Source of the DNA: a virus | Taxonomy: Duplodnaviria; Caudoviricetes | Strand: one strand, 5' to 3' | IMG/VR virus record: IMGVR_UViG_3300037264_002513 | Span: 1-61,600 of that record | Length of the DNA stretch: 61,600 nucleotides | Part shown: piece after piece, positions 6,208 to 25,300 of the stretch | Layout: each line of letters opens with the position of its first letter | Position numbering within the stretch: the stretch's first letter is position 1 | The notes under the pieces: model-generated | What the model was told of the DNA's origin: nothing | The model's input: the letters and a program-made list of their open reading frames with translations, nothing else | Databases searched by the model: none | Made by a program: the position numbers and the translations under genes

Positions 6208-7199
6208 CACGCCCTCCCCGCCAGCGCCTCGGCGGCATGTTTCATGCGGTCCACCGCCTCCGTCACGTCCGCGACGGCTTCGACGAGCACCTCCCGGAGT
6301 TCCTCGGCCTTCACCCCCGGCGCCTCGCACAGGCAGCTGAGGATGCGGAGACGGAAGGCGACCACCTTGTCGAGGTCGGGCAGCACCTCCTGCCGCGCCT
6401 TCTCCCGGCGCTCAGCGGCGAGCTTGGCCTGCTGCGCCGCTTCCTCGCGCCGCAGCCGCTCCTGGCGCTCGCGCTCGACCGCTTCGTTCAGCCGGCGCTG
6501 CTCCTCAAGAGCCTTGCGCTCGGCCTCCAGGCGCGCGGCCTCCGCCCGCTGCTCCGCCGCGATCTTGGCGAGCTCGGCCTCCTTGGCCCGCTGCTGCTCC
6601 GCCTCGAACTGCTGGCGCGCCTTCTCGGCCGCTACCCGCTCGGCCTCCCACACCCGCTGGCGCTCAGCCTCCTCCTGGCGGGCCTTCTCCTGCGCGGCTT
6701 CGAGGGCCTTGCGCTCCTCCGCCAGCTTGGCCCGCTCCTCGGCGAGGCGCTTCTCCTCCGCCTCGCGCTGGGCGCGTGCCTCCGCCTCCTGGGCGGCCCT
6801 ACGCGCGGCGATCTCCTCTTCGAGCGCCTTCACCCTCGCCGCTTCCTCCGCGGCCTTCTGGCGGGCAGCCTCGTCGTCGACCGCCTGCTTCTTAACCCGT
6901 AGCGGATCCTCGATGCCAGCCACGAGCGCGGTGAGGCGCTGGGCCTCGGAGTCGACCAGACGCCCGAACCGGAGTGCGTCCGCCTTCAGCAGCGTTCGGC
7001 GCTTCTCGATCGCCGTGCGGGTCGACCGCAGCTTGCCGATGGCCACCCGGATCTCTTCGTAGCCATCGGGGGTGTCGGCCGACATGGCCGCGCAGACCTC
7101 GCGCATCTGGGCGAGCGCCGCCTCGTTGACATCGTAGACAACGAGCGCCGCGGCGGCATCCGGCACCGGCGTGATGATGAGAGGGGTATCGGCGCTCAT
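6207..7199 (-). CDS. long coiled-coil phage protein
   Basis: E/A/R/K-rich heptads; N-terminal GYEEIRVAIGKLRSTRTAIEKRR; ATGA coupling. Confidence 0.75.
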   Translation of the reverse strand: MSADTPLIITPVPDAAAALVVYDVNEAALAQMREVCAAMSADTPDGYEEIRVAIGKLRSTRTAIEKRRTLLKADALRFGRLVDSEAQRLTALVAGIEDPLRVKKQAVDDEAARQKAAEEAARVKALEEEIAARRAAQEAEARAQREAEEKRLAEERAKLAEERKALEAAQEKARQEEAERQRVWEAERVAAEKARQQFEAEQQRAKEAELAKIAAEQRAEAARLEAERKALEEQRRLNEAVERERQERLRREEAAQQAKLAAERREKARQEVLPDLDKVVAFRLRILSCLCEAPGVKAEELREVLVEAVADVTEAVDRMKHAAEALAGRA

Positions 7200-8725
7200 C
7201 GGCCATGCTCCAGTTCCTCCGGCGCGTAGAGCCCGTGCACTACGTCCGGGTAGACCAAGCGGGCCAGCTTCGCGCTGGCGCGGGCCACGCACATATCGGC
7301 CGGGTTCTTCGCCCAGGCTGAGGCGCTCCAGGCTTTCTGCCGTGCGCCGTCTGAGGGGTTGTCTCCAAACCAGGCCTGTCGGCCCTCGGCGAGGGTGAAG
7401 GTCAGGGCGATCTCAGGATCGCCGACGCGCTTGGTCGCGAAGGTCGCGCGCTCAGCCGTGCGCTCAGTGCAGCGGAAGTACTCCGCCAGACCGGAGCGGA
7501 GCACCATCGCCCGCAGGAGGTCAGCGGACAGCGTCGCCTTGCCTTCGATGATATGCACGGCTCTCACTGACGCGAACACCGTGAGTCCGAGCTCGCGACC
7601 GGCGAGGAAGGTCATCAGAAGGGCCTGCCACGTCGTGTAGGAACCACCCCAGAGCCGCGAATCGAACGCCGCCTGTGCGAGCCAGGTCGCCTGCGTCATC
7701 GTGTTCGGCTCGAACTTACGCTCGAACTCGACATCGACGACGTTGGTCGCTACGCGCGCCAGCTCCGTCGTCGTCGGCAGCGGTGGGAGCGGCTTCAAGA
7801 CGGCTGCGTCGGACACGGGAGGGGCCTCCGGGAACGTGATCGTCAGTTCGCCCCCGTTTGGCGTCTGGACAACCGGCGGCGCGACCGGCGCGCTGGCCTC
7901 CTCCTCCGGTGGCGGCGGCGTGGGCCGGGAGGCCGGCGGCTTCTCGAGCTCCGCGATCGGGAGCTTCACATCGGTGCGAAGCGCGATGAGGGCCCGCACC
8001 AGCGGCAGCCGCAGCTTGAACCCAACCAGGGCCTGGACGATGGCCGGCGTCAGGCCGCGCGCGACGCCGCGGTCGAGGTCCACGTACATGTCGTCGAGCG
8101 ACTTCCAGGCCTTCAGGATCTGCACAGCCCGCACGGGGCCGCAGCCCTTCAGGCCCTGGATGTTGTCCGACGCGTCGCCGACGAGGGCGAGGTAGTCACG
8201 CATCTGGTACGGCATGACCCCGAACTTCTCGAAGGCCGCCGCCTCGTCATAGACTTCGCCCTGCCGCGGCGTCTTGACTTTCACGCGGTCGGTGACCAGC
8301 TGGAGGAGATCCTTGTCGCCCGACACGATGAGGACGGACGTGGTCGGCGGCAGCTGGGCCACCAACGAGGCGATGATGTCGTCCGCTTCGAAGCCGGGGA
8401 CCGCCCACACCGGCCAGCCGTCGGCCCGCAACAGATCCTGCGCGAGCTGCAGCTGGTGGAGCAGTGAGGCATCCTTGTCCCGGCGGTTCGCCTTGTAGCT
8501 GGGGTCCAGCTCGTGGCGGAACGTCTGCCCCGGGGAGTCGCAGCAGACCACCACGCGCCGCTCGCCCTCACCGAGGGCCAGCTGGTGGACCTTTGCCGCC
8601 GTCGCGTTCGCGACGTGGTTGAGCTCGGCGTTGTCCGCCGAGGTCATGTAGATGGGATACAAGATCGAGGAGAGGTCGACGGCCACCACGAGGGGCGGCG
8701 TCTCGGGTACAATAGGTTCTGGCAT
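7196..8725 (-). CDS. 5'-3' exonuclease (PolI-N/FEN-like) fused to RecT/Redbeta-like ssDNA-annealing domain
   Basis: FRHELDPSYKANR, FEADDIIASL, SGDKDLLQL, LVGDASDNIQG (5'-nuclease motifs); Pro-rich linker; C-terminal GRELGL..S...HIIEGK...MCVARA...ARLVYPD..GLYAPEEL. Confidence 0.85.
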   Translation of the reverse strand: MPEPIVPETPPLVVAVDLSSILYPIYMTSADNAELNHVANATAAKVHQLALGEGERRVVVCCDSPGQTFRHELDPSYKANRRDKDASLLHQLQLAQDLLRADGWPVWAVPGFEADDIIASLVAQLPPTTSVLIVSGDKDLLQLVTDRVKVKTPRQGEVYDEAAAFEKFGVMPYQMRDYLALVGDASDNIQGLKGCGPVRAVQILKAWKSLDDMYVDLDRGVARGLTPAIVQALVGFKLRLPLVRALIALRTDVKLPIAELEKPPASRPTPPPPEEEASAPVAPPVVQTPNGGELTITFPEAPPVSDAAVLKPLPPLPTTTELARVATNVVDVEFERKFEPNTMTQATWLAQAAFDSRLWGGSYTTWQALLMTFLAGRELGLTVFASVRAVHIIEGKATLSADLLRAMVLRSGLAEYFRCTERTAERATFATKRVGDPEIALTFTLAEGRQAWFGDNPSDGARQKAWSASAWAKNPADMCVARASAKLARLVYPDVVHGLYAPEELEHGR

Positions 8726-10190: not shown

Positions 10191-10280
10191 CTACCGCATC
10201 CAACGCCAGCACGCCATCGCCAGCAACATAGCCAGCACGGTCGCGAGGATGAGGGCGGCATCCTCCTTGTCATCAGTCAC
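10191..10280 (-). CDS. small membrane peptide (29 aa)
   Basis: MTDDKEDAALILATVLAMLLAMACWRWMR; GTG start overlaps upstream TGA (GTGA). Confidence 0.45.
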   Translation of the reverse strand: MTDDKEDAALILATVLAMLLAMACWRWMR

Positions 10281-10762
10281 GCCGCATCACTCCATACGAC
10301 CGAGAAGCCCTCGGCGCGGGTGACGAAGTAGTGCGGGGGCACCAGCCCAGCGGGGAAGTCCTCGAAGAGCGGCACGCCCCCCGCCGCATAGAAGTTCGCC
10401 GCGAACTGTGAGCAGAACTGCTGGCCGACGAGCGTTACGGGGTCGGGCGTGGCGAAGCTCAGCAACGCCCAGAACGCGTACGGCTGGCCTTTTACCTTCT
10501 GGAAGTAGGCCAGTGCGTCCGACCAGGAGAACCCCGAGGGCGGGCGCAGCGCTATCCCCGGCTTCGGCCAGTCCCACCTGTACCGGTTCACCCCCCGGTC
10601 AGCCCGCGCCGTGAGCGTGCTCACCCCAGGCACCTCCACGACTTCGACGTGGCTCCATCGGTGCCCCGTCCGCAGTGAGATCGCCCAGCCCAGCAGCTCG
10701 AAGGGCCGGTAGACGACGATGTCGCCGGGACGCAGTAGCGCCGGGTCGAGGATGGGGCGCAT
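10277..10762 (-). CDS. permuted papain-like (YiiX/YebB, NlpC/P60-type) amidase/peptidase
   Basis: LRPGDIV...WSHV (His first)...GQPY...FCSQF (Cys second). Confidence 0.75.
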   Translation of the reverse strand: MRPILDPALLRPGDIVVYRPFELLGWAISLRTGHRWSHVEVVEVPGVSTLTARADRGVNRYRWDWPKPGIALRPPSGFSWSDALAYFQKVKGQPYAFWALLSFATPDPVTLVGQQFCSQFAANFYAAGGVPLFEDFPAGLVPPHYFVTRAEGFSVVWSDAA

Positions 10763-10764
10763 GG

Positions 10765-11256
10765 CTACACGCTGCTGAGTACCGCGCCCGCTTGCTGCAT
10801 CTTCGTCTCGATGCGGAGGACGCGCGTTTCGAGGTCGGCGACCCGCGCTTCGAGGTCGCCCGTGGGCGGCGGCAGCGGGTCAGGCGGGGGCGTCGTCGTG
10901 CCGGGGTTGATCGGAGCTTTCCACGGTCGCGCTGGGTCGTTCAGGACGCCCTGCGGCTGCCAGGCCGGCGTGGCGGGTCCGTACCGGTTCTCGTCTTCGT
11001 CCCACCCAGCACCGACGAGACAGTCGAAGTGTTCGAGTGTCACCTTGTGCTGGATGATGTCCGCCGCAACGTACGACCCGTCCGACAGGATGCCATAGCT
11101 GCCGGAGGTTTTCGTCGACAGACCCCACCCCTCGGCGCGGTGTATCCAGGCCGCCTCGTTGCAGATCGCCGCGCACTGGCTGGCGGTTGGCCCGAGATCG
11201 CGGTCGTGGGTGTACTTCTTTCGAACGTCCGCCACCGTCTCCTGAATCGTCGCCAT
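10765..11256 (-). CDS. hypothetical protein in lysis region (globular domain + Pro linker + coiled coil)
   Basis: ATG 11256 with AAGGAG RBS; WGLSTKTSG...ADII...FDCLVGAG; C-terminal DLEARVADLETRV. Confidence 0.65.
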   Translation of the reverse strand: MATIQETVADVRKKYTHDRDLGPTASQCAAICNEAAWIHRAEGWGLSTKTSGSYGILSDGSYVAADIIQHKVTLEHFDCLVGAGWDEDENRYGPATPAWQPQGVLNDPARPWKAPINPGTTTPPPDPLPPPTGDLEARVADLETRVLRIETKMQQAGAVLSSV

Positions 11257-11257
11257 G

Positions 11258-11374
11258 TCACTTCTCCTTCGGCGGACGACCGTTCCACCAGCGCCCGCAC
11301 GTTGCACACTCCCAGCGCCGGAGCGCCGGATCGTACTCGATCTGTGCTGTCTCGCCGCAGTGCGGGCACCTCAT
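11258..11374 (-). CDS. Zn-ribbon microprotein (38 aa)
   Basis: MRCPHCGE...WECATCGRWW; ATG abuts upstream TAG. Confidence 0.55.
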   Translation of the reverse strand: MRCPHCGETAQIEYDPALRRWECATCGRWWNGRPPKEK

Positions 11375-11716
11375 CTACTTCTCGCGGCCGATACAGCGGT
11401 TCCAGGCTTCTTCCGGGTTTGGATTCCTACGCGCGTTGTTGAGGCATTCCGCGAGCACGATGCGGTTCGTTTCCTTCGCGGCGGCTAGGATCTGCGCGTC
11501 CAGCATCTCGTCCCGCTGGTAGTGCTTCACTCCTTCGTCCCGCATCTCTTCTATGAGCTTGGCGTGCGCGTCGAGGCGCGTGATGAGGTGCGTACGGTCG
11601 GACCAGACCATGTAGCCCGCAAGGGACCACGCCGCGCCAACCGCCGCGACGAACCGCATCCATGCCGGCAGCCCGCGCGTGCCGTTCCCGCCGTTCTCGA
11701 TGTCGTTCGCCATCAT
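11375..11716 (-). CDS. holin-like single-TM protein
   Basis: GAGGAG RBS; one hydrophobic helix followed by coiled coil; position after tail genes. Confidence 0.5.
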   Translation of the reverse strand: MMANDIENGGNGTRGLPAWMRFVAAVGAAWSLAGYMVWSDRTHLITRLDAHAKLIEEMRDEGVKHYQRDEMLDAQILAAAKETNRIVLAECLNNARRNPNPEEAWNRCIGREK

Positions 11717-11777
11717 CAGACTCCTCGCCGCCAGCGCCGATCCGGTCGGAGGATCGAAACGAAACATGGGATTCTCG

Positions 11778-13055
11778 TCACCTGGTCGCTGTGATGCCGA
11801 CCGCGTGAGACGGGCTGCTCGAGAGAGTCAGCAAGGGTCGATCGAGCCCAGCCCGACGCGCGAGGCCTTCGAGGCCATCGGGCTGGAGGTTGTCGCTGTA
11901 GGCATACAACAGGAGCGTGCGCCACGGCGCGAGGCAGTGTTCGCGCACCACTGCGGCGCGCTCCGGCGGCAGCTCGAGGAGCCGCCCCGGCATCAACAGT
12001 ACTGTGTCGGGGCTCCACTCGGCCCACGGCACATGTCCGATGTCGCCCGTCATCCACTCCCCGCCAGCGAGTCGGATGATGTCAGGCTCGCGCTCCACAC
12101 CCAGCGTCTCGATGGCGCCGACATCCCGCAGGATGCGGTCGAGGAGCATCCCGTTTCCGGCCCCCAGGTCGACGACGCGAGATTGACCCGGCACGAGGCG
12201 GCCCCGCAGGGCGGCGACAATCGCGCGGTGGGCAGCCCGCATCGGCCCGGGGGCCGAAAACCCGTTCTCCGTCCACCACCTGGCATCCGCCGGTCGGTAC
12301 GCGCCATCGCGGGCCAGCCGGTCAGTGTGCAGGGTGTGGTCAGTGCGCGTCGAGATCCGCATGGCCGGCGTCGAGATCCACGCGATGCCGTGCAGCCGGC
12401 TCCACTCCATCGGCCAGGCCAGCATCTCGACCGCCTCGTCCGTTTCCCACCGATAGCCCAGTCGCCTTGCCGCCTTGAGCGCGTCAGAGGCGAGCGCCTT
12501 CGACATCATGCAGGCGGAATCGCAGGGAAGATGTGGGACGAGGCGGACGCCAGCCCATCGCAACCAGATGTTGATGAGGGGTGGCCCAGACGCGCCGGCT
12601 TCGAAGGTGCTGTCGACTTGGCCCTTGCCCCATGTCTGACAGAACGCCCCGCGACAGCACACGGGGTAGCCCAGGAGTTGCCCGACCTTGCCGTCGTCGC
12701 GCACCGCGAGGGCGTTGAGTAGGGCCCGCGCGTTCTCCGGCGCAGCGACGATGACCCGGTATTGCCAAGGCCCGCCAGGCACGAGCGCGCCCTCGCAGGA
12801 CGTGTAAGGCTGCGCTGACACGGGCACCTGGCGCGGCACCACGGCGAGCCCGTGCCGCACGCCCCACTCCGCCAGCGCCGGGAGCTCGTCGGGCGAGCAG
12901 TGCTGGTACGCCGCCTGGCGCACACCATCCACCACCAGTTGGCGCTCGACCTCGAGCCAGGCGCGCCCCCAATCCTGCCGCACCGCTTCCCACCAGGCGC
13001 GAGACGCCTGGTCGCGATACGCGATGCGCGTGAAGTCAGGCAGCTGTGGGCTCAT
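11778..13055 (-). CDS. Cys-motif (DUF483-like) domain fused to class I SAM-dependent methyltransferase
   Basis: GQLLGYPVCCRGAF...RLVPHLPCDSAC in N-domain; VVDLGAGNG..LGVE in C-domain; ATGA overlap with radical SAM gene. Confidence 0.75.
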   Translation of the reverse strand: MSPQLPDFTRIAYRDQASRAWWEAVRQDWGRAWLEVERQLVVDGVRQAAYQHCSPDELPALAEWGVRHGLAVVPRQVPVSAQPYTSCEGALVPGGPWQYRVIVAAPENARALLNALAVRDDGKVGQLLGYPVCCRGAFCQTWGKGQVDSTFEAGASGPPLINIWLRWAGVRLVPHLPCDSACMMSKALASDALKAARRLGYRWETDEAVEMLAWPMEWSRLHGIAWISTPAMRISTRTDHTLHTDRLARDGAYRPADARWWTENGFSAPGPMRAAHRAIVAALRGRLVPGQSRVVDLGAGNGMLLDRILRDVGAIETLGVEREPDIIRLAGGEWMTGDIGHVPWAEWSPDTVLLMPGRLLELPPERAAVVREHCLAPWRTLLLYAYSDNLQPDGLEGLARRAGLDRPLLTLSSSPSHAVGITATR

Positions 13056-14308
13056 CGGCCGGAATCTCCATGACTGTCACCGTGCGGCGAGTCCCCGTGC
13101 CCAGAGTCCCCGTGGCGCGGACGGGTGTGGTCGGTGTGATCGCCGTGGCCGTCGCCGTGGCCGCCATCCCGCGGTGCCCGTCGTGTGCCGCAGCTCGAGC
13201 CCAGCACCGCGTCTGATAGGCGGGGCGTGTCGCCGCGCGCCCACGCTTCGTGCATGTACCGTTCGTAGAGCGCCCGGTGCGGATGCTGAGTCACCGGCAC
13301 GATGCCGGCGCGGCGGAGCCGCCGCTCGCCCTCCGCGTAGAGGTGTTTCCACACCGCGCAGTACGCGTCTTTGTTGCGCCAGTCACCGTCGATGGCCCCG
13401 CCAGGGCACGCCCCGGTGCAACAGATCCAGTAGGGGCAGCCTTGGCAGCCGCCGTGATCTTGCGGGGTGACTTCCAGCGCGAGCTGCCGCTCGTAGGAGT
13501 GGCCGTCGGCGGGGGTCCACGGTCCACCCGTGAGGACGCGTCCGCACATCGAGGGTTCGCCGTCAGGCTCGATGCCGTTGCAGCTGGGCGTATTCCATGG
13601 GTCACAAGACCGATGGTGGCACAGCACATGATCGTCTTGACCCTGCAGGACGCGCAGCACATCGCTGAAGATCGACAGCGTGAGGTCGGGGCTCTCGTCC
13701 TGTAGGGCCCAGAGCGCGTCAAGCACCGACATCAGATCCGAGTCTGGCAAGACAAGCTCAGGGGGGCCGTGCCGCTCAAGTAGGTGCGGGTTGATATGTC
13801 GGATGCCGCGATGGCGGAGGCCACGAACCCACTCGAGGAACCGCGCCACGCGCTCGCTGGTCCCCACGTTCGCCGCAGAGAGCGTGATGATGAACGAGGG
13901 CACCACGCCAGCCTCAAGGAGCGCATCGATCGCCGCCTCGGTCTTTGCCGTCTGCTGCACGCCACATCGGGCGGCGTTGAGGTCGCCAGGGCCGTCGATG
14001 CTGACACCTACCCCGACGCAGTACCGCTGGAAGAGCACGATGTGCGCGGGCGTGATCAAGGTGCCGTTGGTCTGGATGCCGGAGTGCCCGAACTTCTGGT
14101 GACCGTACGCGAAGAACTCCTCGAGCTCAGCCAGCGACGAGAGCAACGGCTCGCCGCCAAACAGATGGAAGCTCCCGCCCAACCGGTCGATCTGCCGGAA
14201 CATCGCGGCCTTGTCGAGCGGGATGCGCTCCCGGCGGTCGTGCTGTTCATAGCAGTACGCGCAGGCGAGGTTACATCGATGCCCGACGAGTTTGATCTCG
14301 ACTGTCAT
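13052..14308 (-). CDS. radical SAM/SPASM-domain peptide/protein maturase with HGD-repeat C-terminal tail
   Basis: CNLACAYC (CxxxCxxC), FGGEPLL, IQTNGTLI, VSIDG; SPASM C..GIEPDGEPSMC and CQGCPYWICCTGAC (Cx2Cx5Cx3C)...YC. Confidence 0.92.
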   Translation of the reverse strand: MTVEIKLVGHRCNLACAYCYEQHDRRERIPLDKAAMFRQIDRLGGSFHLFGGEPLLSSLAELEEFFAYGHQKFGHSGIQTNGTLITPAHIVLFQRYCVGVGVSIDGPGDLNAARCGVQQTAKTEAAIDALLEAGVVPSFIITLSAANVGTSERVARFLEWVRGLRHRGIRHINPHLLERHGPPELVLPDSDLMSVLDALWALQDESPDLTLSIFSDVLRVLQGQDDHVLCHHRSCDPWNTPSCNGIEPDGEPSMCGRVLTGGPWTPADGHSYERQLALEVTPQDHGGCQGCPYWICCTGACPGGAIDGDWRNKDAYCAVWKHLYAEGERRLRRAGIVPVTQHPHRALYERYMHEAWARGDTPRLSDAVLGSSCGTRRAPRDGGHGDGHGDHTDHTRPRHGDSGHGDSPHGDSHGDSGR

Positions 14309-15544
14309 CTACGCTCCTATCAGGCTGGGGTTCGCTACGGCCTCGGCATCGGCGTGGTCGATGTCGGCGTGATCCGTGTCAGCGTGCGTATTCGCGTGGT
14401 CGGCATCGGAGTGGGCAGAGTCGGTGTGGGGCACAAGGTCGCCGTGCGCGTCAGAGTGGGTGTTCTGATGGTCGATATCTCCATGCGCTTCGTCCTGGTA
14501 CAGCTGGTCTTGGTGCAGCGTATCTGCGTGGGTGTTCGAATGCGCGTCGGTGTGCACGTTCAGGTGGTCGCTGTCGAGGTGCTCCTGGTCCACATGGGTC
14601 ACGTCCCCGTGCGTGTTCTGGTGCAGCGTATCAGTGTGGGTGTTGAGGTGCGGCCAGTTTTCGTGGGATACGTCGTCGTGATCAGTGTAGGTGTCGGACC
14701 AGTCATCATGGGTGTTCAGGTGGTCGCTGTCGAGGTGGCCGACGCCCTGGTTGGTATGCTCGTCCTGGTGACCGGAGTCCTCATGGGAGTCCGTCCAGTC
14801 GGTGTAGTCCGCGTAGTTCCCATGGAGGACATCCTCGTGGATGTTGGTGTGCCCATCGAGGTGATCGGTGTGGTCCGTATAGAGCTTCCCCCCGCCCAGA
14901 TCGATGTAGCCCACGTTCGCCCAGTCTCCGTACGTGTCCTGATGCTCAAACACCGGAGGCGTGTCGGTGTGCGTGTTCGTATGGGTGTCGGTGTGGTCGC
15001 GGTCAGCGTGGGGGACATTGGTGTGCACCGCATCCGTCCACGCGCTATACGTGTCAGCGTGGAGGACGTTGGCATGGCTCTGGTCCTGGTGCTGCGTGTC
15101 GACGTGTTCGGCATCCGTGTGGCTGGCATCACTATGGGCGTCGCTGTAGATGTCTCCATGTTCGATGTCAGCGTGCGCGACGTTTCCATGGGTATTCTCA
15201 TGGACGTTATCTTGATGGTCGACGTTGCCGTGCGCCACATCCTGGTGACCCCAGAACTCCTCGTGGTCGCTCTCCGCCAGCCAGTGCAGCTGCGCGCCCT
15301 CGATCCAGAGGGATCCCGCCGCGCCCGCTGGGGTGCCCAGCGAGGGGCCGTAGGCTCTGTATTCGTTTGAGGCGCTCTCGTTGATCCAGTGGAGGTAGTC
15401 GCCCTCGATCCAGAGGCTCCCCGGGGCCGCCGTCGCGACCGCCGCAGCGACCCATTCCCCAGCCAGTCGCCACTCGATGCGGGAGGCGTCGATGTAGTGG
15501 AGGTTGTTCCCCTCCACCCAAAGGGAGCCGGGGCGTTTCGCCAC
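14309..15544 (-). CDS. H/Y/W-x-D/N repeat protein; putative radical-SAM substrate and virion fibre
   Basis: Three N-terminal GSLW(V/I)EGxxLH(Y/W) repeats, then ~65 aromatic-X-Asp/Asn tripeptides; start and stop abut both neighbours with 0-bp gaps. Confidence 0.85.
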   Translation of the reverse strand: MAKRPGSLWVEGNNLHYIDASRIEWRLAGEWVAAAVATAAPGSLWIEGDYLHWINESASNEYRAYGPSLGTPAGAAGSLWIEGAQLHWLAESDHEEFWGHQDVAHGNVDHQDNVHENTHGNVAHADIEHGDIYSDAHSDASHTDAEHVDTQHQDQSHANVLHADTYSAWTDAVHTNVPHADRDHTDTHTNTHTDTPPVFEHQDTYGDWANVGYIDLGGGKLYTDHTDHLDGHTNIHEDVLHGNYADYTDWTDSHEDSGHQDEHTNQGVGHLDSDHLNTHDDWSDTYTDHDDVSHENWPHLNTHTDTLHQNTHGDVTHVDQEHLDSDHLNVHTDAHSNTHADTLHQDQLYQDEAHGDIDHQNTHSDAHGDLVPHTDSAHSDADHANTHADTDHADIDHADAEAVANPSLIGA

Positions 15545-16366
15545 TTAGATCTCCGCGTACTTGTCCGCACCAACAGGAATCACAAGGCGGTTGCCCGCGT
15601 TGGACAGCCGCACGATCGGCGACCGCGCAAACTGCGTCGCCGACGTGGCCATCAGCATGTCTCCCGCCGCTTGCCCGACCAACGCCAGGCCCCCGGCGCG
15701 CACGGCCGCGATCTCGACGTTCGTCGGCTGCACCACGAGGCTCGAACTCAAGTCCGCGACGCCCACCAGCCGCCGATACGTGGGCGCGGTCGACGTGATG
15801 GCCCCCACCGTCGCGGAGACATAATACGCCACCCCGGGACTCAGTCCAACAAACCCCGTGACACGCCCTTGGAGCCGAACGGCCCCCGTCGCTGCAGAGG
15901 CGATAGCCGTCGGCGCCAGGCCCACCATCCCCGCCTCGCTCGAGCTCGCCAGCACATCCGCATCGGCACGGTACCACCGCCCCGCCGTCGTGCCGCCCGC
16001 CCCCGCACTGAGATAGACGACATCGCGCGCGGCGATGGCCTCACCGGCAATTCCCTCGATGTCCACGTTCGCGTCCCACGAGGCCGGCGCGATCAGGTTG
16101 TCTTGCGTCCGCAACACCACATCGTTGGCGTTCGCGAAGATGAGCTTGTAGCTGGTCGGGAGCCAGAACATGACGCACCGGCCGGCGGCGTCGCAGATCA
16201 CGGGGTTCGGGTTCGGGATCGTCCCCGCCGCATCTGAGTACGTCGGCAACGCGTTGGCGGGCCAGGTGCCGCCCGCCGACAGCGTGTAGATACGCGCCCC
16301 AGCGATCGTGTTGCCGTTGCTGTCAAGCGCCGTGAACCACGGCGAGGGGGCGACCATGAGCTGCAT
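15545..16366 (-). CDS. tail spike/fibre adaptor with P22 tailspike head-binding-like N-terminal domain
   Basis: DSNGNTIAGARIYT..AG...TYSD..GT.PNPNPV.CDAAGR...YKLI...RTQDN; no catalytic spike domain follows. Confidence 0.7.
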   Translation of the reverse strand: MQLMVAPSPWFTALDSNGNTIAGARIYTLSAGGTWPANALPTYSDAAGTIPNPNPVICDAAGRCVMFWLPTSYKLIFANANDVVLRTQDNLIAPASWDANVDIEGIAGEAIAARDVVYLSAGAGGTTAGRWYRADADVLASSSEAGMVGLAPTAIASAATGAVRLQGRVTGFVGLSPGVAYYVSATVGAITSTAPTYRRLVGVADLSSSLVVQPTNVEIAAVRAGGLALVGQAAGDMLMATSATQFARSPIVRLSNAGNRLVIPVGADKYAEI

Positions 16367-19300
16367 CAGCGTCCTCCTTCAGCTGCCGGCTCCGCAGCCC
16401 GCGTAAGCCGGGGTTTCGTCACCCACCCGTGCATCGTCGAGGGCACCTTCACCAGCAACCCCGGGCTGACCGGCGGGTGCCGCTCGGGCAACGACGCCTC
16501 GCCGTTGGCGTAGCGAGCCATGTCGATCACGGCATCGTACAGGCGGTCGTAGATCTCGCGCTTCTCAGCAGGCGTGAGGTCAAACCGCTGGCGCACGAGG
16601 CGGATCTGCTGGGTCACGAGCCGAATCTGAGCATCCGCCCGACGCAGCCCGCTCAATTCCTGCGCGGCCTTGGCGTTCTTGGTGAGAAGGGCTTGTGCCT
16701 TGGGAATCTGGCCCTCCCGCACATACCGATTGACCATGCGCGAGTACTGCTCGAGCGACGCCTTCCGCTGCCGGAACCGTTCCAGGCTGGTCGCCTGTCC
16801 CGTCGCCTTCTGCCCGACAAACGCGCCGATGCCAGGCACGTCACGGAGCCCGCGCGAGGCCGACGGCGGCGCCCAGCCCGCCTTTTCCTCCGCCTTCGAG
16901 ACGAGGCTGGAGATGAATTGGCCGGTCGCCGAGGTGTAGCCGTAGATGATGTGGTCGAGCATCGCCGGCGCCAACCCGATGGCCGGTCCAACCTGCTTCG
17001 AGAATGTCGAGGTCCACTGTGAGTACTGCTGCTCCAGCGGGAGGTCGAGGTCGAACGGGCTGACAATCGGCCGCTTGCGGAACGTGTCGTAGTTCGCCGC
17101 CGCTTCCAGCACCGGCAAGACGGCTGTTGGAGCCAGCGCCAGGAACGCCTTGAGGAGGTCCGCGTCGCCGACGCCGGCAAACGGCAACCGCTGGATCGCT
17201 TCGGGGTCGTTGTCGACCGCCCAATCCAGGTAGGTTTCGAGCACGTTGCCGATATCGCCCACATCGAAGGGTCGAGGGATGCGGACCCACCCGCCTCGCC
17301 CATTCGGGATGTGCCAGAAGGCCGCGCGCTCCCATCCCGCCAGCTCGCGGTATTCGGGATCTTCGCGGTTCAGGAGCCACAACAACAGCCCCGGCAGGAG
17401 CCCATAGAGGAACGCCTTGAAGGCGTAGGCCGCGCGCTTGTCGGGGTCGCCCAACTCGGTGGCGATGCGCGTCCACCCGCCGATCCTCGCGCCGAGGAAG
17501 GCTTCGTAGCGGTTGTAGCGCCGCACGACAGACCCCATCTTGGCGAAGTCCTGCGTGGACTCACGCGCGGTAAACGCGGCGCGGGCTTCCCGCTCGGCCC
17601 CACCGATGCCCTGCGCGGCCAGCTTCTTCTCGGTTTCGCGGAAAGCCTGGAGGCGCGTGGCGTTGTCGCTCAGCTCGGCCAGGGCCCGCAGCCCCTCGAA
17701 CGGATTGAACACGGTCTTGTCGAGGGTGCGGCGGAGGCGGCCGTGCTGGAACTTCTTGATTTCGTTCTTCGCGTAGTCCCGGTCGACCGCAACGATGCTC
17801 GCCTGGGCCGCCTTTGCGGCACGGAACCGCTGCCAGGACTCATCGTTCTTGATGATCAGGCCCGCCGCCGCCAGCGTCTTCAGGAACGAGTGATGATAGG
17901 CGGCCTTCGTTTTGGCGTCGATGGTGTCGCGGATCGGGTTCCGCATCGCGAAGGACAGCGTTGAGGTCGCCGCGCGGCGCAGCAACGATGCCGCGCCCAC
18001 CGCGAACTTGGTGATCCAGTTCCGCGGCTGCTGCGGCTGCGCGTTGACGAGCAGCTCCCAGATCGCGTCATCGTGGACTTCGTACCATTCCCGCTTGCCG
18101 TCACGCAGGACCGTCACAATACGGGCGTCGCCCTGCGCGATGATAGCCGGCGTGAACACCGTGACCAGCGCATCGAACTCGATGTCGTTGGGAATCTCCT
18201 CGCCGACCGTAACCCCGTTCGCCGCGAGCACCGCGAGGATGGCCGACCGGACCCGATCCAGGTTGAACCGCGTCGCCACCTGTTTCATGCTGACCCGCTC
18301 GAGGAAGCGCGCGCCGCCCTCGTCGTGGATCAGGTCCACCAGTTTCAGCCTGGCGGTGTTTTCCTCGACCGTCCGCACGAAGGTAAACGTGTTCTTGATG
18401 GAGGTCACGATCGGGTCGACGATCCGGCGGGCGCTACCCGTGCGGGCCTTGATGGCCTGCGGCGTGTTCTGCTTCTTCGTCCCAGGCCCCCGGAAGGCCG
18501 CGTCGGCCGCGTCCATGACCCGCTCCCACGGCACGTAGCGGGTATTGCGCGCCCGCATCGCTTCCGCCGAGTCACGCGACAGGTAGTCGTGCTCCACCGC
18601 CCACTGGAGCAGCGTGTCCCAGTAGGCCGTCACCCGCTCGGCCGCGGTGACGAATCGCTCCGGCACCTCGGCCGCCATTGCAGCCTCGACCGTCGATGGT
18701 CGGATCCCCGTCTCGAGGCCCTGTTCGTGGTACTCCTGCGCACGGCGCGCCACGAGATAGGCCACGAACGGTCTGTAGTCCTTTCGGTTGAGCACCTCCC
18801 TGACGGCCGTGAGGAACCCCGGCCCCATGATGGTGCCGTCCGCGCGCCGAATATGGTCTTCGAGAAAGGTTTGCGCCTCGCCCGAAGTGCCGGCCAACGT
18901 GCGGAACGCCACGTAGGCGCTGCTGCCGTAGTCCTTGACCGGCAACCCCTTCTCCATCGCCTGTTCCACGCGCAGGATCGGCAGGTTGTCGTCGTTCAGC
19001 GCGTCGTTGAGCTTCTGGAGGGCATCCCTGGGGTCTGACGTGGTGCCCAGCACCCAGTCGCGGAAGCGGCTCCACCGGCCAGGCTCGCCGTTCCAGTCGA
19101 TGCGCTCCTCGAGCTCCTGTTCCGGCGTCATCGCCAGAAGGCCCTGAATCTGGGCCTGCTGCTCGCGGAAGAAGGCCCCGAGGGCCTTGTCCGAGTTGAG
19201 ATACGCCTCGAACAGGGCGGTAAACGCCGGGGCCTGCGTCGCCGCGGCCTCGGGCTCGGTGAACCAGAGGCGGAGGTATTCGGCCGCGCCTTCCTTCCGC

Positions 19301-22300
19301 TTGTACTGGCGGTCTTTCAGCTTGCTCGGCGGCGTCGTCACCTCGCCGAGGGCTTCGAGCTCGACGGCCACCGCCCGGTTGGCGCCCGCGGCGCGCGCCG
19401 GCCGGATCTGCATCACGGCCTTGTCGACGTGGTGTCCCAGCTCGTGCAGGATGACCTGGAGATCCTTCGACACCTTCGTACGAATCGCCCACACATCCGG
19501 CTTGTAGATGCCGCCGGCGCGCTGCTGGAACCGCCGCACGCTCATGGGCACGTCGGCAAAGAACTTCTGGAACGCGGCCAGGATCTCGTCCCGGTTCATC
19601 TGGGGCCCCGCCGGCCCGGGGGCGGAGGCACGCGTCGGCAACGCTGACCGGGCTGGCAAGGGCATCATGTGGCGCCGCGGGGCCCCGCCGCCCATCGGCA
19701 TCGCGTCCTCGTCGTCCTCGTCGCTCGGGGGTTCCTCGGCTGCTGGCTCCCGACCCGGCGTCTCAGGCGCTTCGTCCTGCCCAACCGACACGCGCAGCCG
19801 GCGCACCTCAGCCTCCAGGGCCTCGAGCTCCGCATCTTGGCCGAACTGCTTACCGAGCACTTCGAGGTGGCCCTTACGGTCCTCAGCCCACTGCGCCAGG
19901 CTCTTGCGGGAGAACCCGCCGAGCTTCTCCAGGGCCTCTCGCTTGGTGTGCGCGTCGAGGCTCCGGCGGTAGTCGGGCGGCACCTTCTCATCCCACTCGG
20001 GCAGCGAGGCGAACGGCAGCACCGTGCGGAGCGGCCCCCGGCGCTTCTCGCCGATCGTCGTGTCGTTCGAGAGGAACAGCTGCGGCGCCTGGATCTGAAT
20101 CCGGTCGGTGGTCGGTTCGCCGTTGACGACCTTGAACTCGTCGCGGCCGTAGGCCTGGATGACCAGCACATAGGGGCCGACGCGGCCCACGACCACGGGA
20201 TCGCTTCGATAGCTGGCGTAGCCGCTCTGCAGGATCGCCTCGAGCTTGGCCTGGAACGCCTTGCGCGCGTCCGTATCCTTCAGGTCGAAGGTCAGCGGCG
20301 TGTCCAGTTCCTCTAGGTAGAACCGTGACGGGTTGTGCGTGATGATGGCCGTCGGCTTCTTGGCCCACTCGTCCAGCACCGCGAGGTCCGCGTCGTTCTG
20401 CGCGATGCGCTCCTCGTCGCGCTTGGCCTCGGCGTCGCCGGAGTCGATCGCCCGACGGGCCTTGCGCTGCCGCTGCAGAAAGTTGACCCGCCGGCCGCGA
20501 AGCGACCTCAGCTCCCGGTCCTTGTGGACGAGCGTGAGGGCGTCGGGATTGCCGCTCGCCAGCGCCGCGGCCGTCTTCTGATCCATCTGCGCCGGGTCGA
20601 GGTCTTCCATGCTGTCGAGCTCGCCGCGATAGAACTTCGTCAGAAAGTCCTGTTTGGTGGCCAGAAGGCCCCAGCGGTATTCCTCGAACGAGCCCTTCGT
20701 GACGTACCGGACGATCTCGACCTCCTTGTTGGTGTTGCCCTGCCGGATGCCCCGCGCTTCCTGCTGCTCCAGCCAGTCTGGCCGCCAGGGCGCGTCGAGC
20801 TCATGCACCGCCACCACGCGGGTCTGCACGTTCATGCCCGTGCCCATCTTGGCGCCCGTGCCGATGAGCACCCGGACGCGACCTTCGCGCACCGCCCGGA
20901 AGAGCCGGATCTTGTCGCCTGGCTCGGGCGCCTGGTGAATGAACGCGATTTCCTGGGGCTTGATGCCCTTGGCGATGAGCTTCCGTTTCAGATCCTTGTA
21001 GAGGTCACGGCCGGTTTCGAGCGAGGCGACGGCGTCGAGCACGGTCTGTTCCTCTTCCTCGTCCGTCACGATCTCGCCCTGATCCTCGTCGACTACCATC
21101 TTGTCGGCGTCGTCGAACGCCTCGACTCTTTGCCCTCCGAGGTTGAGCGGTTCCACCGTGCGCGGAGCCCCGGCGTTGAGGAAGACGAGCTGCGTGCCCA
21201 GGTCGTCCTGGGACGCCCGGTAGATGTCCGCGATCTTGTCAGCCGCCGCCACCAGCCGGCCCTGCGGGTTCTCCGGCGCCTCCGGGTCAATGAGGCGCAT
21301 GTCGATCGCTTCGAGGCTGGCCTGCGTGTAGATCTTGAGGTGGTTGTCGTCCTTCGGGTCGACCTTCCCACCCTTCAGGGCCTCCAGGCGATCCCGAATC
21401 TCGGCCATGAACTCTTCGTGTCCGGGCGGCGGGGGCGTGGTGATGACCGTCGGGCGGCCGTTCTTGATCGCCGGCAGCGTCACCACGGGCGTCCCGTCGG
21501 GGTTCTTCGCCTCAATGAGTTGCTGCGTCGTGAAGACATCCGCGAAGCGCCAGAAGAGGCCCGTGAGCTCGCGCAGGTTCACCCAGTACCGCAACCGTGT
21601 CCGCTCCTTGTAGCCGCCCCCCGGCTTCGGCTCGCTCTCCGGCGCGGCCACCGCGAAGGCATTGGCCCAGGCGTCGAACCCGGCCATCCCGACATCAGCG
21701 AGCTGCGGTTGCGCGAGATAGCGGAAGACGGTGTAGACCTCGCTCATGGTGTTCGTGACCGGCGTGCCCGTCATGAACACGAGATTACGACTCTTCGACT
21801 GCTCGTTCAGGTAGCGGGCCTTCAAGAACATATCCATCGACCGTGCGGCGTCGCTGCCCTTGAGCCCGACGATGTCGTTCTTCCCGGTCGAGAAGTAGAG
21901 GTTCTTGAACATGTGGGCTTCGTCGACAATCAGCCCATCCACGCCGAGCTCCTCGAAGGTGACCGGCGAGCTCTTCTTCTGCTGGTCGAGGCGCTTCCGC
22001 AGCCGCGCCCGCAGATTCAGGATGGCGCGGACGATGTCCTTCACGCTGGCCGTCGTGCCACGCCCGAACAGCCCTTTCTTCCCAGCCTCCTTCGCGTCGA
22101 CCTGATCCTTGAAGTCCTCCCGCGACACGTCCGCCTGTTCGGCGCCGTTGGCGATGAGTTCGTCTTCCTGCTGCTGAATGAACGCCTTGAGCGTCGCCAG
22201 CTTGACGGAAATCCGCAGGTACTGTGACTGCGCCATCACGATCGCGTCCCAGTCCTGGTTGGTGATACGGGCGATGAGCTCCTGGCGCCGGTCTTTCTGG

Positions 22301-25300
22301 AAATCGCTCTCATCGGGCACCAGCACGCGGGCGCCGGGGTAGACGTACTGGAAGTCTGCCCGCCACTGTTCAACCAGGTGGTTCGGGACCACGATCATCG
22401 GCTTGCGGGCGAGCCCGAGGCGCTTCCATTCTCCGGCAATCGCGATGCCGGCGAACGTCTTGCCGGCGCCCACCGCGTGGGCGATCATCGTGTTTCCGCC
22501 CTGGAGCGTGCGCCAGACCACGTTCTTCTGCCACGGGTGCCACCGCAGCTCGGGGTTGGCCCCGACGATCAGTATCCGCGAGCCGTCGAACTTCCTGGGC
22601 ACCTCGCGATTCAGCAGGGCGTTGTAGATGTTCGTCAGCGTCTCGGCGGCCTTGTCGTTGTTCTTCCACCACAAGGCCCACTGTTCGCGGAGCTGCTTCA
22701 AGGACTCCCGGTACTGGTCGGTTTTCTCCTGGCTGAAGATCTTGATCGTCTCGCCATCGACCTTTTCCTCGTTGTAGATGCGCGGGAGCCTGTTGTTCAA
22801 CGCCTCGTAGGCCCACTCGACGAAGTTCGTCCCTTCGGGCATGAACTCATGCGTCCCCCCGAAGCCGTCGACGTGGAACTCCGTCCGATGCTCGTTGTTC
22901 GAGAGCTTCACGGTGAGGCTGCTCGTGTTTCCCACGGCACGCAAGAAGGACTCATAGATGTCGTCGGGCACCCACGTCGCCCCGAACGGCGCCTCGAAGG
23001 TTTCCGGCGTCTTCGGCGCCGGCTGGACCTTCTCTAGGGCCTCGACGTTCGGCTTGAACGCGGGGTCGAGCTCGGCCGCGAACTGCGCCTGCTCCAGCTT
23101 CGTAACCACGTCCCCGGAGAGATATTCCTCGCGCGTGACCCAGACCTTCGTTTTCGGCTCGAAGAAGAGCTCGCCGGTGAGGCCCTTGGTCACGGCATCG
23201 GGCGTGCTCTCGAGCAAGCCGGCCATGTATTCGAGGTCGACGTGCCCCTTCCAGGCCAGGCTTTGCACGAGGGCGTCTTGTGGCGAGGCGGCCTTCGTGG
23301 GCTCCTCGACCTTGTCCACGACGCGCTTCGAGAAGATGTCGGCGAGGCCGATGAAGTCGACGACGCGCTTCTTCCGCCCGCTGGCGTCCTTCTCGCTGTA
23401 GGTTTCCGTGACCTCCAGCGTGATGATGCGCGACGCGTTCGGGTCGGCCTTGATCGCCCGCTTGTTCTCGGTCAGCGCGATACGCCCGAACCCGGCCACG
23501 AACGCCTCGTAGGTCTTGCGGAGCTCGGCCTGCGCGGCCTTCAGCGTGGCATCGTCCTGTCCGGTGGTCATCGCGTCGAGGACGACCTGGTAGGCGTCGC
23601 GCAGCGGGATGAACGCCTTGACGCGCGCAGCGGTCTTGCCGGTCAGCGGCACCCGCTCGGTCGTCCCGTTGTTGTAGACGGCGATGTGCTTACCGTCCAT
23701 GACGTAGGAGCCGTTCTTCGAGTCGAGCGGAACGTCCTTCGCGAACTTCCGCCGGTCAGGCCGCAGCGTGGCCTTGTAGGTGTTCTTCGGGAAGCTGTCC
23801 ACGACGCGCGCCAGGTCGTCAGGCGTCATCACCCCGGTGACGTTGTAGCCGGTCGCGCGGTAGTTCATCTTCCCGCTGCGGTCCTCCTCGCCAAGGATGT
23901 TCTCAGGATGCGCGACGAAGTACTCGTTCGTGTGGATGAACTCGTCGCGGCCTTTGTCCTCGTTCCACTCCTTACCCAGATCCTCGCGCTTGACCGACTC
24001 GATCCACCCCGGGATGCCCTGCGCGAGCGTGGCGCCAGGCTCCTTCTTCTGGAGCACGATCACGTCCGTCACGACCTCGGTGCCCGCGGTTGTCTTGAAC
24101 GCGGACGAGGGCATCCTGAACGCGCCCAGGAAATGCGCGCGGTCAGCGATGTAGGCTCGTACGGAGTCGTTCTGGCTATCCATCGTGTAGCGCGACGTGA
24201 CGAAGATCACGAGCCCGCCAGGTCGAACGGCGTCAAGAGCCTTGCCGAAGTAGTAGTTGTGAATCGACCGCGTCATCAGCGCGCGCGCGGGCGACACGAA
24301 GGCCGGGTCGAACACCTCAACCTTGCCGAACGGCACGTTCGAGATCACGAAGTCGTAGAACTCGTCGGGCACGCGGGCCTCTTCCAGGGGGCTGGCCTGG
24401 ACGATGGCGCCCTGGTAGAGCTGCTGCGCGATGGCCGCGGCGACCGGCTCCTTGTCGACGCCGAAGAGGACCGTCCGCGGGTGTTCCACGATGGCGGGCG
24501 GCATGGTCCCGAAGAAGTGGCCGGTCCCGATGGCCGGCTCGAGGATGCGCCCGCCCTTGAACCCCAACCGCTCGGCCAGGCTCCACAGCGCCCGCGGAAT
24601 GTCGGAGAACGAGTAGTGCGCGTTGATGACCGATTCGCCGAGATCCTTGAGCTCCGCTGGCGTGAGCAGCCGTTCGAGCTCTTCGCGGGCCTTGCCGAGC
24701 CGGGGGTCTTTCCCGGCAAGGTCGGCCGCCTTCTTCGAGGCGACGACCGGGGCGAGGTTGGTGTGCCCCCAGCCGATGTACTTGGCGAGGACGGCCTGCT
24801 CGTCGGCGGTCGCGGGGCGCTTCTGCGCGTCGAGTTGCTTGAGCAACCGGAGCGCCGCCATGTTGTTTTCGAGTTTGCCGATCCAGCTTCCGCCGGTGGT
24901 CAGCTCTTCGACATCGCTGATACGGAAGTGCTTGGGCCGCTCGCCGCGCGCGTGGGCGGTGACCACGTTCGGATCGTCGACATCGTCGGCGGTGTCCACA
25001 TCGCTGGCATCACCAGCTCGCTCACCTGGGCTGGGCTGGCGCCCTCCCCCAACATCAGCGCCTCCTCGCCGAGGGCCGCGTCGACCGCCTCGCGGACGGC
25101 CTGCTCCACCTTCAGCTTGCCCTCCGGCTGCTGGTGCAGCTTCCGCAGCGGCGGGCTGTTCGCCAGCCACACCTTCAGCACCTTCAGCTCGAGGCCCTCC
25201 AGGGGGTTGACCGGTGACACCGGCTTCGACGGCTGGCCTTCCTCGTACACCCGCTCCCGTGGTAGACGCTGCATCGGTGCCTTCTTCCTGTACTGTCGGC

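Follow-up and report, generated by a model that had tools for sequence, protein, structure and literature searches.

A DUF483-type/methyltransferase fusion gene of a tailed phage belongs to a conserved module with a radical SAM enzyme and an aromatic-x-Asp/Asn repeat protein

The stretch of DNA analysed here (hereafter the window) is the complete virus record IMGVR_UViG_3300037264_002513 (Duplodnaviria; Caudoviricetes; 61,600 bases), which encodes a P22-like portal, a major head protein, a terminase and a 4483-aa DarB-like protein. On its minus strand lies the gene that concerns us (11778..13055; ATG start, stop codon at 11778-11780), which specifies a 425-aa fusion of a DUF483-like domain with a class I S-adenosylmethionine (SAM)-dependent methyltransferase domain, as delineated by the open reading frame (ORF) list, its homologues and an AlphaFold2 model. 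A conserved module that consists of a repeat protein (14309..15544), a radical SAM (rSAM)/SPASM enzyme (13052..14308) and a DUF483 protein with or without a methyltransferase has this fusion gene as its third component, the three genes abutting or overlapping on one strand. The TGA stop codon of the rSAM gene shares an ATGA overlap with the ATG of the fusion gene (13052..13055, minus strand, read directly from the sequence), and as a GGAG lies about 11 nt upstream of this ATG, the arrangement fits translational coupling of the two genes; the two ORFs preceding the rSAM gene abut with zero gap, so that the four genes form a tight operon. The window has a G+C content of 67-69%, at which long chance ORFs are common, and a 347-aa ORF overlaps the fusion gene on the opposite strand. 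The ORF at 11778..13055 is nonetheless a real gene and not a chance product of high-G+C DNA, because it has many homologues (118 proteins at E<=1e-3 among 8000 scored candidates; 1286 cluster representatives at E<=1e-3, 328 of these at E<=1e-30) and its product yields a confident AlphaFold2 model (mean predicted local distance difference test, pLDDT, 94.5; predicted template modelling score 0.91).

The N-terminal part of the fusion protein (residues 1-262; 12270..13055, minus strand) was delimited by its Pfam DUF483 match, its relatives and a domain model, which attained a pLDDT of 94.5 when the domain was modelled alone. The cut-off of Pfam DUF483 (PF04467; 25 bits) lies above the scores obtained for the whole protein (17.0), for the N-domain alone (17.9) and in the genome search (18.6); within the family, a DUF483 match at E<=0.01 is obtained for 42 of the 69 aligned relatives (best 2e-6), and the Cys-rich core around LGYPxCC (residues 120-142) aligns to profile positions 34-56. 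Judged by its sequence, the domain is thus best described as a distant relative of DUF483 and not as a scoring member. Conservation is concentrated in two motifs, namely LGYPVCC (residues 128-134; 12654..12674, minus strand), in which C133 and C134 are invariant, and HLPCDSAC (residues 175-182; 12510..12533, minus strand; conservation 0.99 for H175, 0.97 for C178 and 1.0 for C182), the latter being part of a PHLPCDSAC stretch that spans residues 174-182; more broadly, P131, C133, C134, D148, R171, P177, C182 and G223 are invariant or nearly so in alignments A1 and A2. The near-invariance of the four cysteines (C133, C134, C178 and C182), with H175 and D148 near them in the sequence, suggests a metal site, and we consider that they probably bind a metal.

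The same residues could also be read as those of a processing peptidase, in which an N-domain cysteine, His175 and Asp148 would make up a triad of the cysteine-peptidase type and trim the repeat protein in the manner of leader peptidases. C133 and C134 start a predicted helix (132-140), H175 and D148 are invariant or nearly so, and in the HXS antiphage system the N-terminal processing of HxsA is reported, in the available text, to depend on the rSAM enzymes together with HxsD (PMC13128918). However, four invariant cysteines are better suited by a metal site than by a triad, the structure matches include no papain-like or other peptidase fold (which is weak evidence), and the repeat proteins that would serve as substrates vary in length from 67 aa to more than 1500 aa and have no leader in common, apparent secretion signals being present in some; we therefore regard a peptidase as quite unlikely.

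Solved structures were searched with the whole model, whose match lists were filled by the methyltransferase, and with the N-domain as a separate model. For the N-domain the best solved-structure match is 2guk (PG1857; VIA-align Z 7.0, root-mean-square deviation 3.1, 104 aligned, residues 27-146; Foldseek E 0.087), which shares an LGY-x-x-C stretch with it (single-sequence search E 0.51, at chance level); the printed alignment stops before the second Cys motif, and 2guk covers less than half of the domain. Other rows were set aside: those of NleE (Z 4.6, too weak) and of inositol phosphatases (Z 4-5) were not taken as meaningful, a RING finger (E 0.097 in the single-sequence search against solved structures) was at chance level, and the ESM Atlas returned only unnamed or DUF483-labelled clusters (score 0.76, below lead level). 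We found no specific NCBIfam or PHROGs family for the fusion protein, and the N-domain alone gave zero NCBIfam matches at E<=1, hence none to the Hxs models.

The C-terminal part (residues 266-425; 11781..12260, minus strand) is, by its modelled fold and its SAM motifs, predicted to be a class I SAM-dependent methyltransferase, as indicated by VIA-align, Foldseek and a family profile run against the PDB. The class I fold is recovered over model residues 256-425 at VIA-align Z 14.3 (3dtn_B; root-mean-square deviation 3.2, 159 aligned), with further rows for BelI (9fce_A, Z 14.1), CgnL (7pd7_A, Z 13.1) and many others at Z 12-14, and Foldseek places PrmA first (2nxj_A, E 7.5e-7) among 458 matches at E<=0.001. 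Motif I (VVDLGAGNG, residues 293-301; 12153..12179, minus strand) is conserved in alignment A1, where D296, G298, G300 and G302 occur in at least 90% of the 62 aligned relatives; the acidic residue after strand 2 (G-V-E, 319-321) is the majority residue in the family, and R358, E361, Y384 and Y386, which belong to the PGRLLE and YAYGD blocks after strands 4 and 5, are likewise present in at least 90% of the 62 relatives. Scores against the named families fall short of the cut-offs (Pfam MetW 19.9 vs 21 bits, Methyltransf_25 15.6 vs 27, NCBIfam metW 22.3 vs 189.5), and Methyltransf_25 is matched at E<=0.01 by 49 of 69 relatives. In the comparison of the family profile with the PDB the best relatives are the peptide (RiPP) methyltransferases BpumL/BamL (E 1.9e-9 to 9.1e-9) and CgnL (E 8.4e-8), the match being limited to about 94 residues of the generic SAM-binding core. 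A pattern search of the fusion protein for [DNS]PP[YFWH] and ENV returned none, and its sole P-x-C or PC strings are the Cys motifs of the N-domain.

The initial annotation had described the gene in much these terms. All three motifs that it quoted (LGYPVCC, PHLPCDSAC and VVDLGAGNG) occur in the 425-aa ORF, and the anatomy it proposed (a DUF483-like Cys/His domain followed by a class I methyltransferase) is borne out by profiles and structure matches, which move the domain boundary only from about residue 270 to about 262-266. The phrase 'reminiscent of DUF483' was of the right strength for a match below the curated Pfam cut-off, the pattern search confirms the stated absence of DNA-methyltransferase motifs, and the suggested translational coupling to the rSAM gene fits the ATGA overlap.

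The partner gene directly upstream (13052..14308, minus strand) encodes a 418-aa rSAM/SPASM-like enzyme (PF04055 at 51.6 bits) whose CX3CX2C cluster motif is formed by C12, C16 and C19 and is accompanied by 8 further conserved cysteines (alignment A3), with no N-terminal domain ahead of the cluster motif. Its best NCBIfam matches, all far short of their cut-offs and limited to the rSAM core, are cyclophane synthases (AmcB, DynA, YhhB, GrrM/OscB and XyeB) and the anaerobic sulfatase maturase, and its scores place it outside the named cyclophane-synthase families (AmcB 63.2 vs 425 bits; YhhB 45.5 vs 445; GrrM/OscB 44.8 vs 310; XyeB 33.6 vs 450). The enzyme carries a C-terminal His-Gly-Asp tail (residues ~381-418; 13055-13170, minus strand) with seven H-x-D triplets, and a tail with at least 2 H-x-D/N triplets follows the catalytic domain in 62 of 118 distinct rSAM homologues from the fetched loci; these substrate-like motifs come just before the DUF483 gene, and self-modification, a tether or metal binding are possibilities for their role.

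When the rSAM enzyme (residues 1-378) and the N-domain (residues 1-265) were submitted to complex prediction, each chain being given its own alignment, three runs returned scores of 0.83, 0.83 and 0.84, as compared to 0.23 for the best of 3 controls; the pass mark for this score is reached by 58 of 80 solved complexes and by 2 of 110 mismatched pairs, and is only a rough guide here, where own alignments were used. Contacts agreed between runs at 88% or more, and the partner pLDDT was at least 86. The predicted interface joins the Cys-rich SPASM-like half of the rSAM enzyme (residues 238-312, including R274, L278, G287 and R311) to two segments of the N-domain: residues 3-19 (12999..13049, minus strand), the first strand with a conserved LPDFTR..W, and residues 221-244 (12324..12395, minus strand), the conserved LHGIAEI and TRTD strands, which are predicted to contact rSAM residues 262-312. 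The lowest-error pairs include R311 of the rSAM enzyme with residues 221-224 of the N-domain, where G223 is invariant. Interface residues are more conserved than the remainder in both proteins (0.63 vs 0.50 in the N-domain, permutation p 0.014; 0.78 vs 0.64 in the rSAM enzyme, p 0.004). The prediction thus places the N-domain against the SPASM half of the rSAM enzyme, in agreement with natural fusions of the two, which are independent evidence.

The third gene (14309..15544, minus strand) encodes the presumed substrate, a 411-aa protein that harbours 65 [HYWF]-x-[DN] triplets in residues 96-411, as compared to 16.9 +/- 3.3 (maximum 28) in 2000 shuffles, and whose homologues adjoin rSAM genes elsewhere. 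The triplets are mostly His-x-Asp or His-x-Asn, spaced 4-5 residues apart, and in showing aromatic-X-X motifs beside an rSAM/SPASM enzyme the module shares this trait with triceptide systems. In the window, as in the Thermus phages Cumys and phiMa, the particle genes precede the module and small lysis-type genes follow it, a position that points to a role in the virion fibre; we consider the repeat protein, on the ground of gene position, likely to be a virion fibre component. Residues 1-95 of the protein (15260-15544, minus strand) are made of three repeats of ~35 aa (PGSLWIEG..LHYID type), which are also present in Cumys_13, in a Limnochordales genome locus (L022) and in a viral locus (L088), and may be an attachment or trimerisation module of the fibre.

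In order to place these genes in a wider context, loci were fetched by peptide patterns from the fusion-protein family only (80 prokaryotic genome and 80 viral contigs), and regions of three Thermus phages were added; the 162 loci with an N-domain match that were counted (79 viral, 80 genome and 3 Thermus-phage) are of phage, bacterial and archaeal origin, and as those kept are the most similar to the query, the methyltransferase shares given below are biased towards the fused form. An rSAM homologue on the same strand was found in 155 of the 162 loci (134 upstream, 8 fused in one reading frame and 13 downstream; weakest match E 1e-31), while in the remaining 7 the sequence ends 157 bases or less upstream of the gene; put differently, every one of the 155 loci with more than 157 bases upstream carries the rSAM homologue. 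In the Thermus phages Cumys, phiMa and phiLo the gene immediately after that of the rSAM enzyme encodes the N-domain homologue, and triple fusions of rSAM, DUF483 and methyltransferase were recognised with Pfam in three loci (L020, L025 and L053). A dense repeat protein (at least 9 [HYWF]x[DN] per 60 residues) is encoded on the module strand in 117 of the 162 loci (70/79 viral, 44/80 genome and 3/3 Thermus-phage), a density reached by only 150 of the 10,616 six-frame ORFs of these loci (ORFs below 50 aa were not called, so that short peptides are missed). The repeat partners include, at one end of the range, a 67-aa peptide (L004) and, at the other, proteins of 1000-1584 aa with a C-terminal array, and two of them (L012 and L031) bear an apparent N-terminal twin-arginine export signal, as judged by eye. 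The DUF483 domain is therefore firmly tied to one rSAM clade and to His-x-Asp/Asn triplet proteins, and the functional link to the rSAM and repeat genes put forward in the initial annotation holds, its homologues being accompanied by the former in 155 and by the latter in 117 of the 162 loci. The refuting condition named there, homologues without linkage to these genes, is clearly contradicted. The initial annotation is in this way supported in part, its chemical proposals (His N-methylation, Asp O-methylation/aspartimide formation, Fe-S or electron supply) standing as candidates only.

When called with the family profile, the methyltransferase occurs in 76 of 79 viral and 47 of 80 genome copies and in none of the 3 Thermus-phage copies. 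Single-sequence phmmer calls were discarded for this purpose, as they under-called the domain and Pfam showed many of the 'negative' long tails to be divergent methyltransferases. Other domains are added in some relatives, such as PqqD (PF05402; P0022 and P0072), PF03692 (P0095) and DUF364 (L082). Three bacterial genome contigs (L077, L078 and L082) encode a DUF483 domain in which a C-terminal extension of ~320-340 aa replaces the methyltransferase, that of L082 matching the 'putative heavy-metal chelation' family DUF364 at E 6.4e-14. The spacing within the module also varies: one viral group within L096-L154 (e.g. L097, L104 and L109) has ~560-610 bases between the rSAM gene and the DUF483-methyltransferase gene, and in the 13 loci with a downstream rSAM gene the latter lies 1.1-2.5 kb away, which implies extra genes inside the module.

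The locus data also bear on the target of the module. The authors who described it in Thermus phages suggested DNA as the substrate, so that the rSAM enzyme, the DUF483 domain and the methyltransferase would all act on phage DNA; the available text of their report notes that cyanobacterial homologues lie beside deazapurine DNA-modification genes and proposes unknown DNA modifications (10.1101/2024.08.14.607894), and the phage studied here is rich in DNA methyltransferases elsewhere in the window. Against this, the methyltransferase of the fusion protein lacks the DNA-methyltransferase motifs that were searched for, the module is tied to aromatic-x-Asp/Asn repeat proteins (117 of 162 loci), the rSAM enzyme has a Cys-rich SPASM-like half with peptide and protein maturases as its best family matches, and PqqD fusions occur in the family. 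A DNA target appears to us extremely unlikely.

Taken together, these observations incline us, with only modest assurance, to the view that the fusion protein is an obligate partner of the rSAM enzyme and brings with it a methyltransferase that tailors the same repeat protein, the three genes forming a protein-maturation module. Docking would involve the conserved beta-sheet of the N-domain (residues 3-19 and 221-244) and the SPASM half of the rSAM enzyme (238-312). Since this enzyme has no N-terminal recognition domain, the DUF483 domain may complete it, either as an aid in holding the repeat substrate, as a stabilising element, or as both. By analogy with the triceptide synthases, the rSAM step could introduce an aromatic-to-C-beta crosslink inside each triplet, while the methyltransferase, thereby tethered to the rSAM enzyme, would most likely methylate the same triplet array; as its acceptor we would guess the His ring nitrogen first and the Asp carboxylate second. 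The analysis establishes the gene, its domains and conserved residues, the gene linkage and the natural fusions, together with a complex prediction above the pass mark; from these we infer the binding itself, the metal, the group that is methylated and the chemistry of the rSAM enzyme.

Several points weigh against an obligate partnership of this kind. Every Pfam and NCBIfam match of the fusion protein lies below its curated cut-off, and the likeness of the rSAM enzyme to the cyclophane synthases is weak (63 vs 425 bits) and confined to the rSAM core. Foldseek and VIA-align returned no solved relative of known function for the N-domain (nothing above Z 7.0), so that the biochemical role assigned to it is purely inferred. 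The score of the predicted complex expresses the confidence of the model and is not a measurement, and the four-Cys site falls outside the listed predicted rSAM interface. The methyltransferase is dispensable for the module, being absent from 33 of 80 genome loci and from all 3 Thermus phages. PqqD is a peptide-recognition element, and its fusions argue that DUF483 itself is not one. Finally, loci that have the methyltransferase and loci that lack it show only weak differences in the composition of their repeats (His share p 0.011; Thr at position 2 p 1.4e-4; Asn share p 0.23), in tests that are not independent, as the rows are mutually related; no conclusion on the methyl acceptor was drawn from these weak and non-independent differences.

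Some of these points would suit a non-catalytic helper, in which DUF483 is an Fe-S, zinc or electron-transfer scaffold or a chaperone, and the methyltransferase-like domain only binds SAM or S-adenosylhomocysteine for regulation or supply. The four cysteines and the histidine are invariant, the DUF483 domain is universally paired with the rSAM enzyme, the methyltransferase is optional in the family and scores below all Pfam cut-offs, and the acceptor is not inferable from repeat composition. The SAM motifs, however, are kept in distant relatives together with R358, E361, Y384 and Y386 near the usual acceptor pocket, as expected for a working enzyme, the Cys site is not in the predicted rSAM interface, and adjacent Cys-Cys pairs are unusual as standard cubane ligands; we hold a mere helper to be unlikely. 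A further alternative would make the methyltransferase a one-carbon donor, which places a methyl group on His or Asp/Asn that the rSAM enzyme then oxidises to a methylene-type bridge, so that a carbon is inserted in the crosslink. The triple fusions do put rSAM and methyltransferase in one chain, and in the HXS system a +8 Da shift on an S-H-R-S-S motif is read by its authors, in the available text, as +C/-4H (PMC13128918). Yet HXS has no such methyltransferase, and modules without it are common (3/3 Thermus phages and 33/80 genome loci), so that carbon insertion cannot be the general chemistry; we deem this alternative very unlikely.

A bolder version of the rSAM partnership can be formulated for the virion. 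It supposes that a complex of rSAM, DUF483 and methyltransferase 'staples' the particle protein in the tail-fibre/tailspike slot of the phage at as many as 65 His/Tyr/Trp-x-Asp/Asn triplets, and that DUF483 is a new metal-bearing docking subunit which replaces the usual recognition domain and brings a methyltransferase to the same sites. We offer this only tentatively, as a possibility that we would not ourselves favour at present. If it were true, this would be the first case in which maturation machinery of the peptide-antibiotic type is shown to act on a structural protein of a virus, and it would give a function to DUF483, with more than 1000 sequence clusters in phages, bacteria and archaea. 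Were the module to modify a virion fibre, the chemistry of peptide natural products would reach whole viral structural proteins, and this may bear on fibre stability, metal binding and host recognition. The observations are of interest apart from this scenario, given that DUF483 is a large family without known function (1286 cluster representatives at E<=1e-3), and that in most of the sampled viral copies (76 of 79) its domain comes with a methyltransferase that it would bring to the rSAM enzyme. As the three module genes are compact and co-expressible in E. coli, the proposal is directly testable.

Other genes of the window were recorded alongside the module. Three small ORFs follow it (10277-11767, minus strand; 130 aa with a hydrophobic stretch, 180 aa and 161 aa), of which the 161-aa one matches phrog_1128 (E 1e-14), and they occupy the position held by lysis-type genes in Cumys. 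The 4483-aa ORF (16366-29817, minus strand) matches DarB-like antirestriction, DNA methyltransferase and helicase PHROGs; as the phage has a P22-like portal and the ORF comes after a DNA-ejection-type gene, its product is possibly an ejected giant protein. A single ORF of 509 aa (7196-8725, minus strand) combines an exonuclease-type part (residues 8-214) with a RecT-like annealing part (374-506).

With regard to known systems, neither DUF483 (PF04467) nor 2guk has a known function, and the protein of the window scores below the Pfam cut-off. Our literature search, which covered papers without their supplements, found none that assigns a function to DUF483 or to the module, and only the Thermus phage report describes the latter; a paper on aminomalonate (PMC12186529) proved, in its available text, to be unrelated. 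For the methyltransferase profile, the best sequence relatives of solved structure are BamL/BpumL of plantazolicin and CgnL of crocagin, with which the fold is shared and from which the domain differs in that they are stand-alone enzymes. BamL/BpumL and CgnL act on peptide amines.

The presumed rSAM step can be compared to that of the triceptide synthases HaaB, HtkB and YhhB, which, according to the available text, form links from His C2 to C-beta on HAA, HTK and HNR motifs (PMC11499958). As far as that source extends, the likeness consists in rSAM/SPASM enzymes that act on aromatic-X-X triplets, cyclophane synthases being the best NCBIfam matches of the window's enzyme; the latter differs in having no N-terminal recognition domain (its CX3CX2C begins at residue 12) and in scoring far under the family cut-offs. 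To our knowledge, triceptide systems have neither a DUF483 partner nor a fused methyltransferase, and act on short leader-bearing peptides with one to few motifs.

In organisation only, the predicted rSAM-DUF483 pair resembles the HXS antiphage system, in which the available text describes the rSAM enzyme HxsC as needing and binding a small partner, HxsD, in order to mature a His-x-Ser repeat protein (PMC13128918), that is, an rSAM enzyme and a dedicated non-rSAM partner acting on repeats. HXS, as described there, serves bacterial defence and works with two rSAM enzymes and five repeats but without a methyltransferase, whereas the window has 65 triplets in a phage protein, ending in Asp/Asn and not in Ser, and the N-domain of the fusion protein matches none of the Hxs models.

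The closest counterpart is the 'rSAM module' of the Thermus phages Cumys and phiMa (Cumys_13/12/11), which comprises an rSAM enzyme, a DUF483 protein and a third protein, and whose function is left open in the available text (10.1101/2024.08.14.607894, PMC11437467). The same report mentions that InterPro holds DUF483 fusions with methyltransferase or rSAM domains (10.1101/2024.08.14.607894). All three module genes are homologous to those of the window and share the order repeat protein, rSAM, DUF483 protein; the N-domain is 32-35% identical (query residues 1-280 and 1-238, E 7e-25 and 9e-26), the module likewise lies after tail genes and before lysis-type genes, and the repeat protein is also of the His-x-Asp kind, with the same three N-terminal repeats. 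The two differ in that the DUF483 proteins of these phages (312 aa) have no methyltransferase domain, and in that their authors suggest, in the available text, a DNA modification that the evidence presented here does not favour. The fusion gene is accordingly a methyltransferase-bearing variant of a catalogued, functionally uncharacterised family of rSAM partners.

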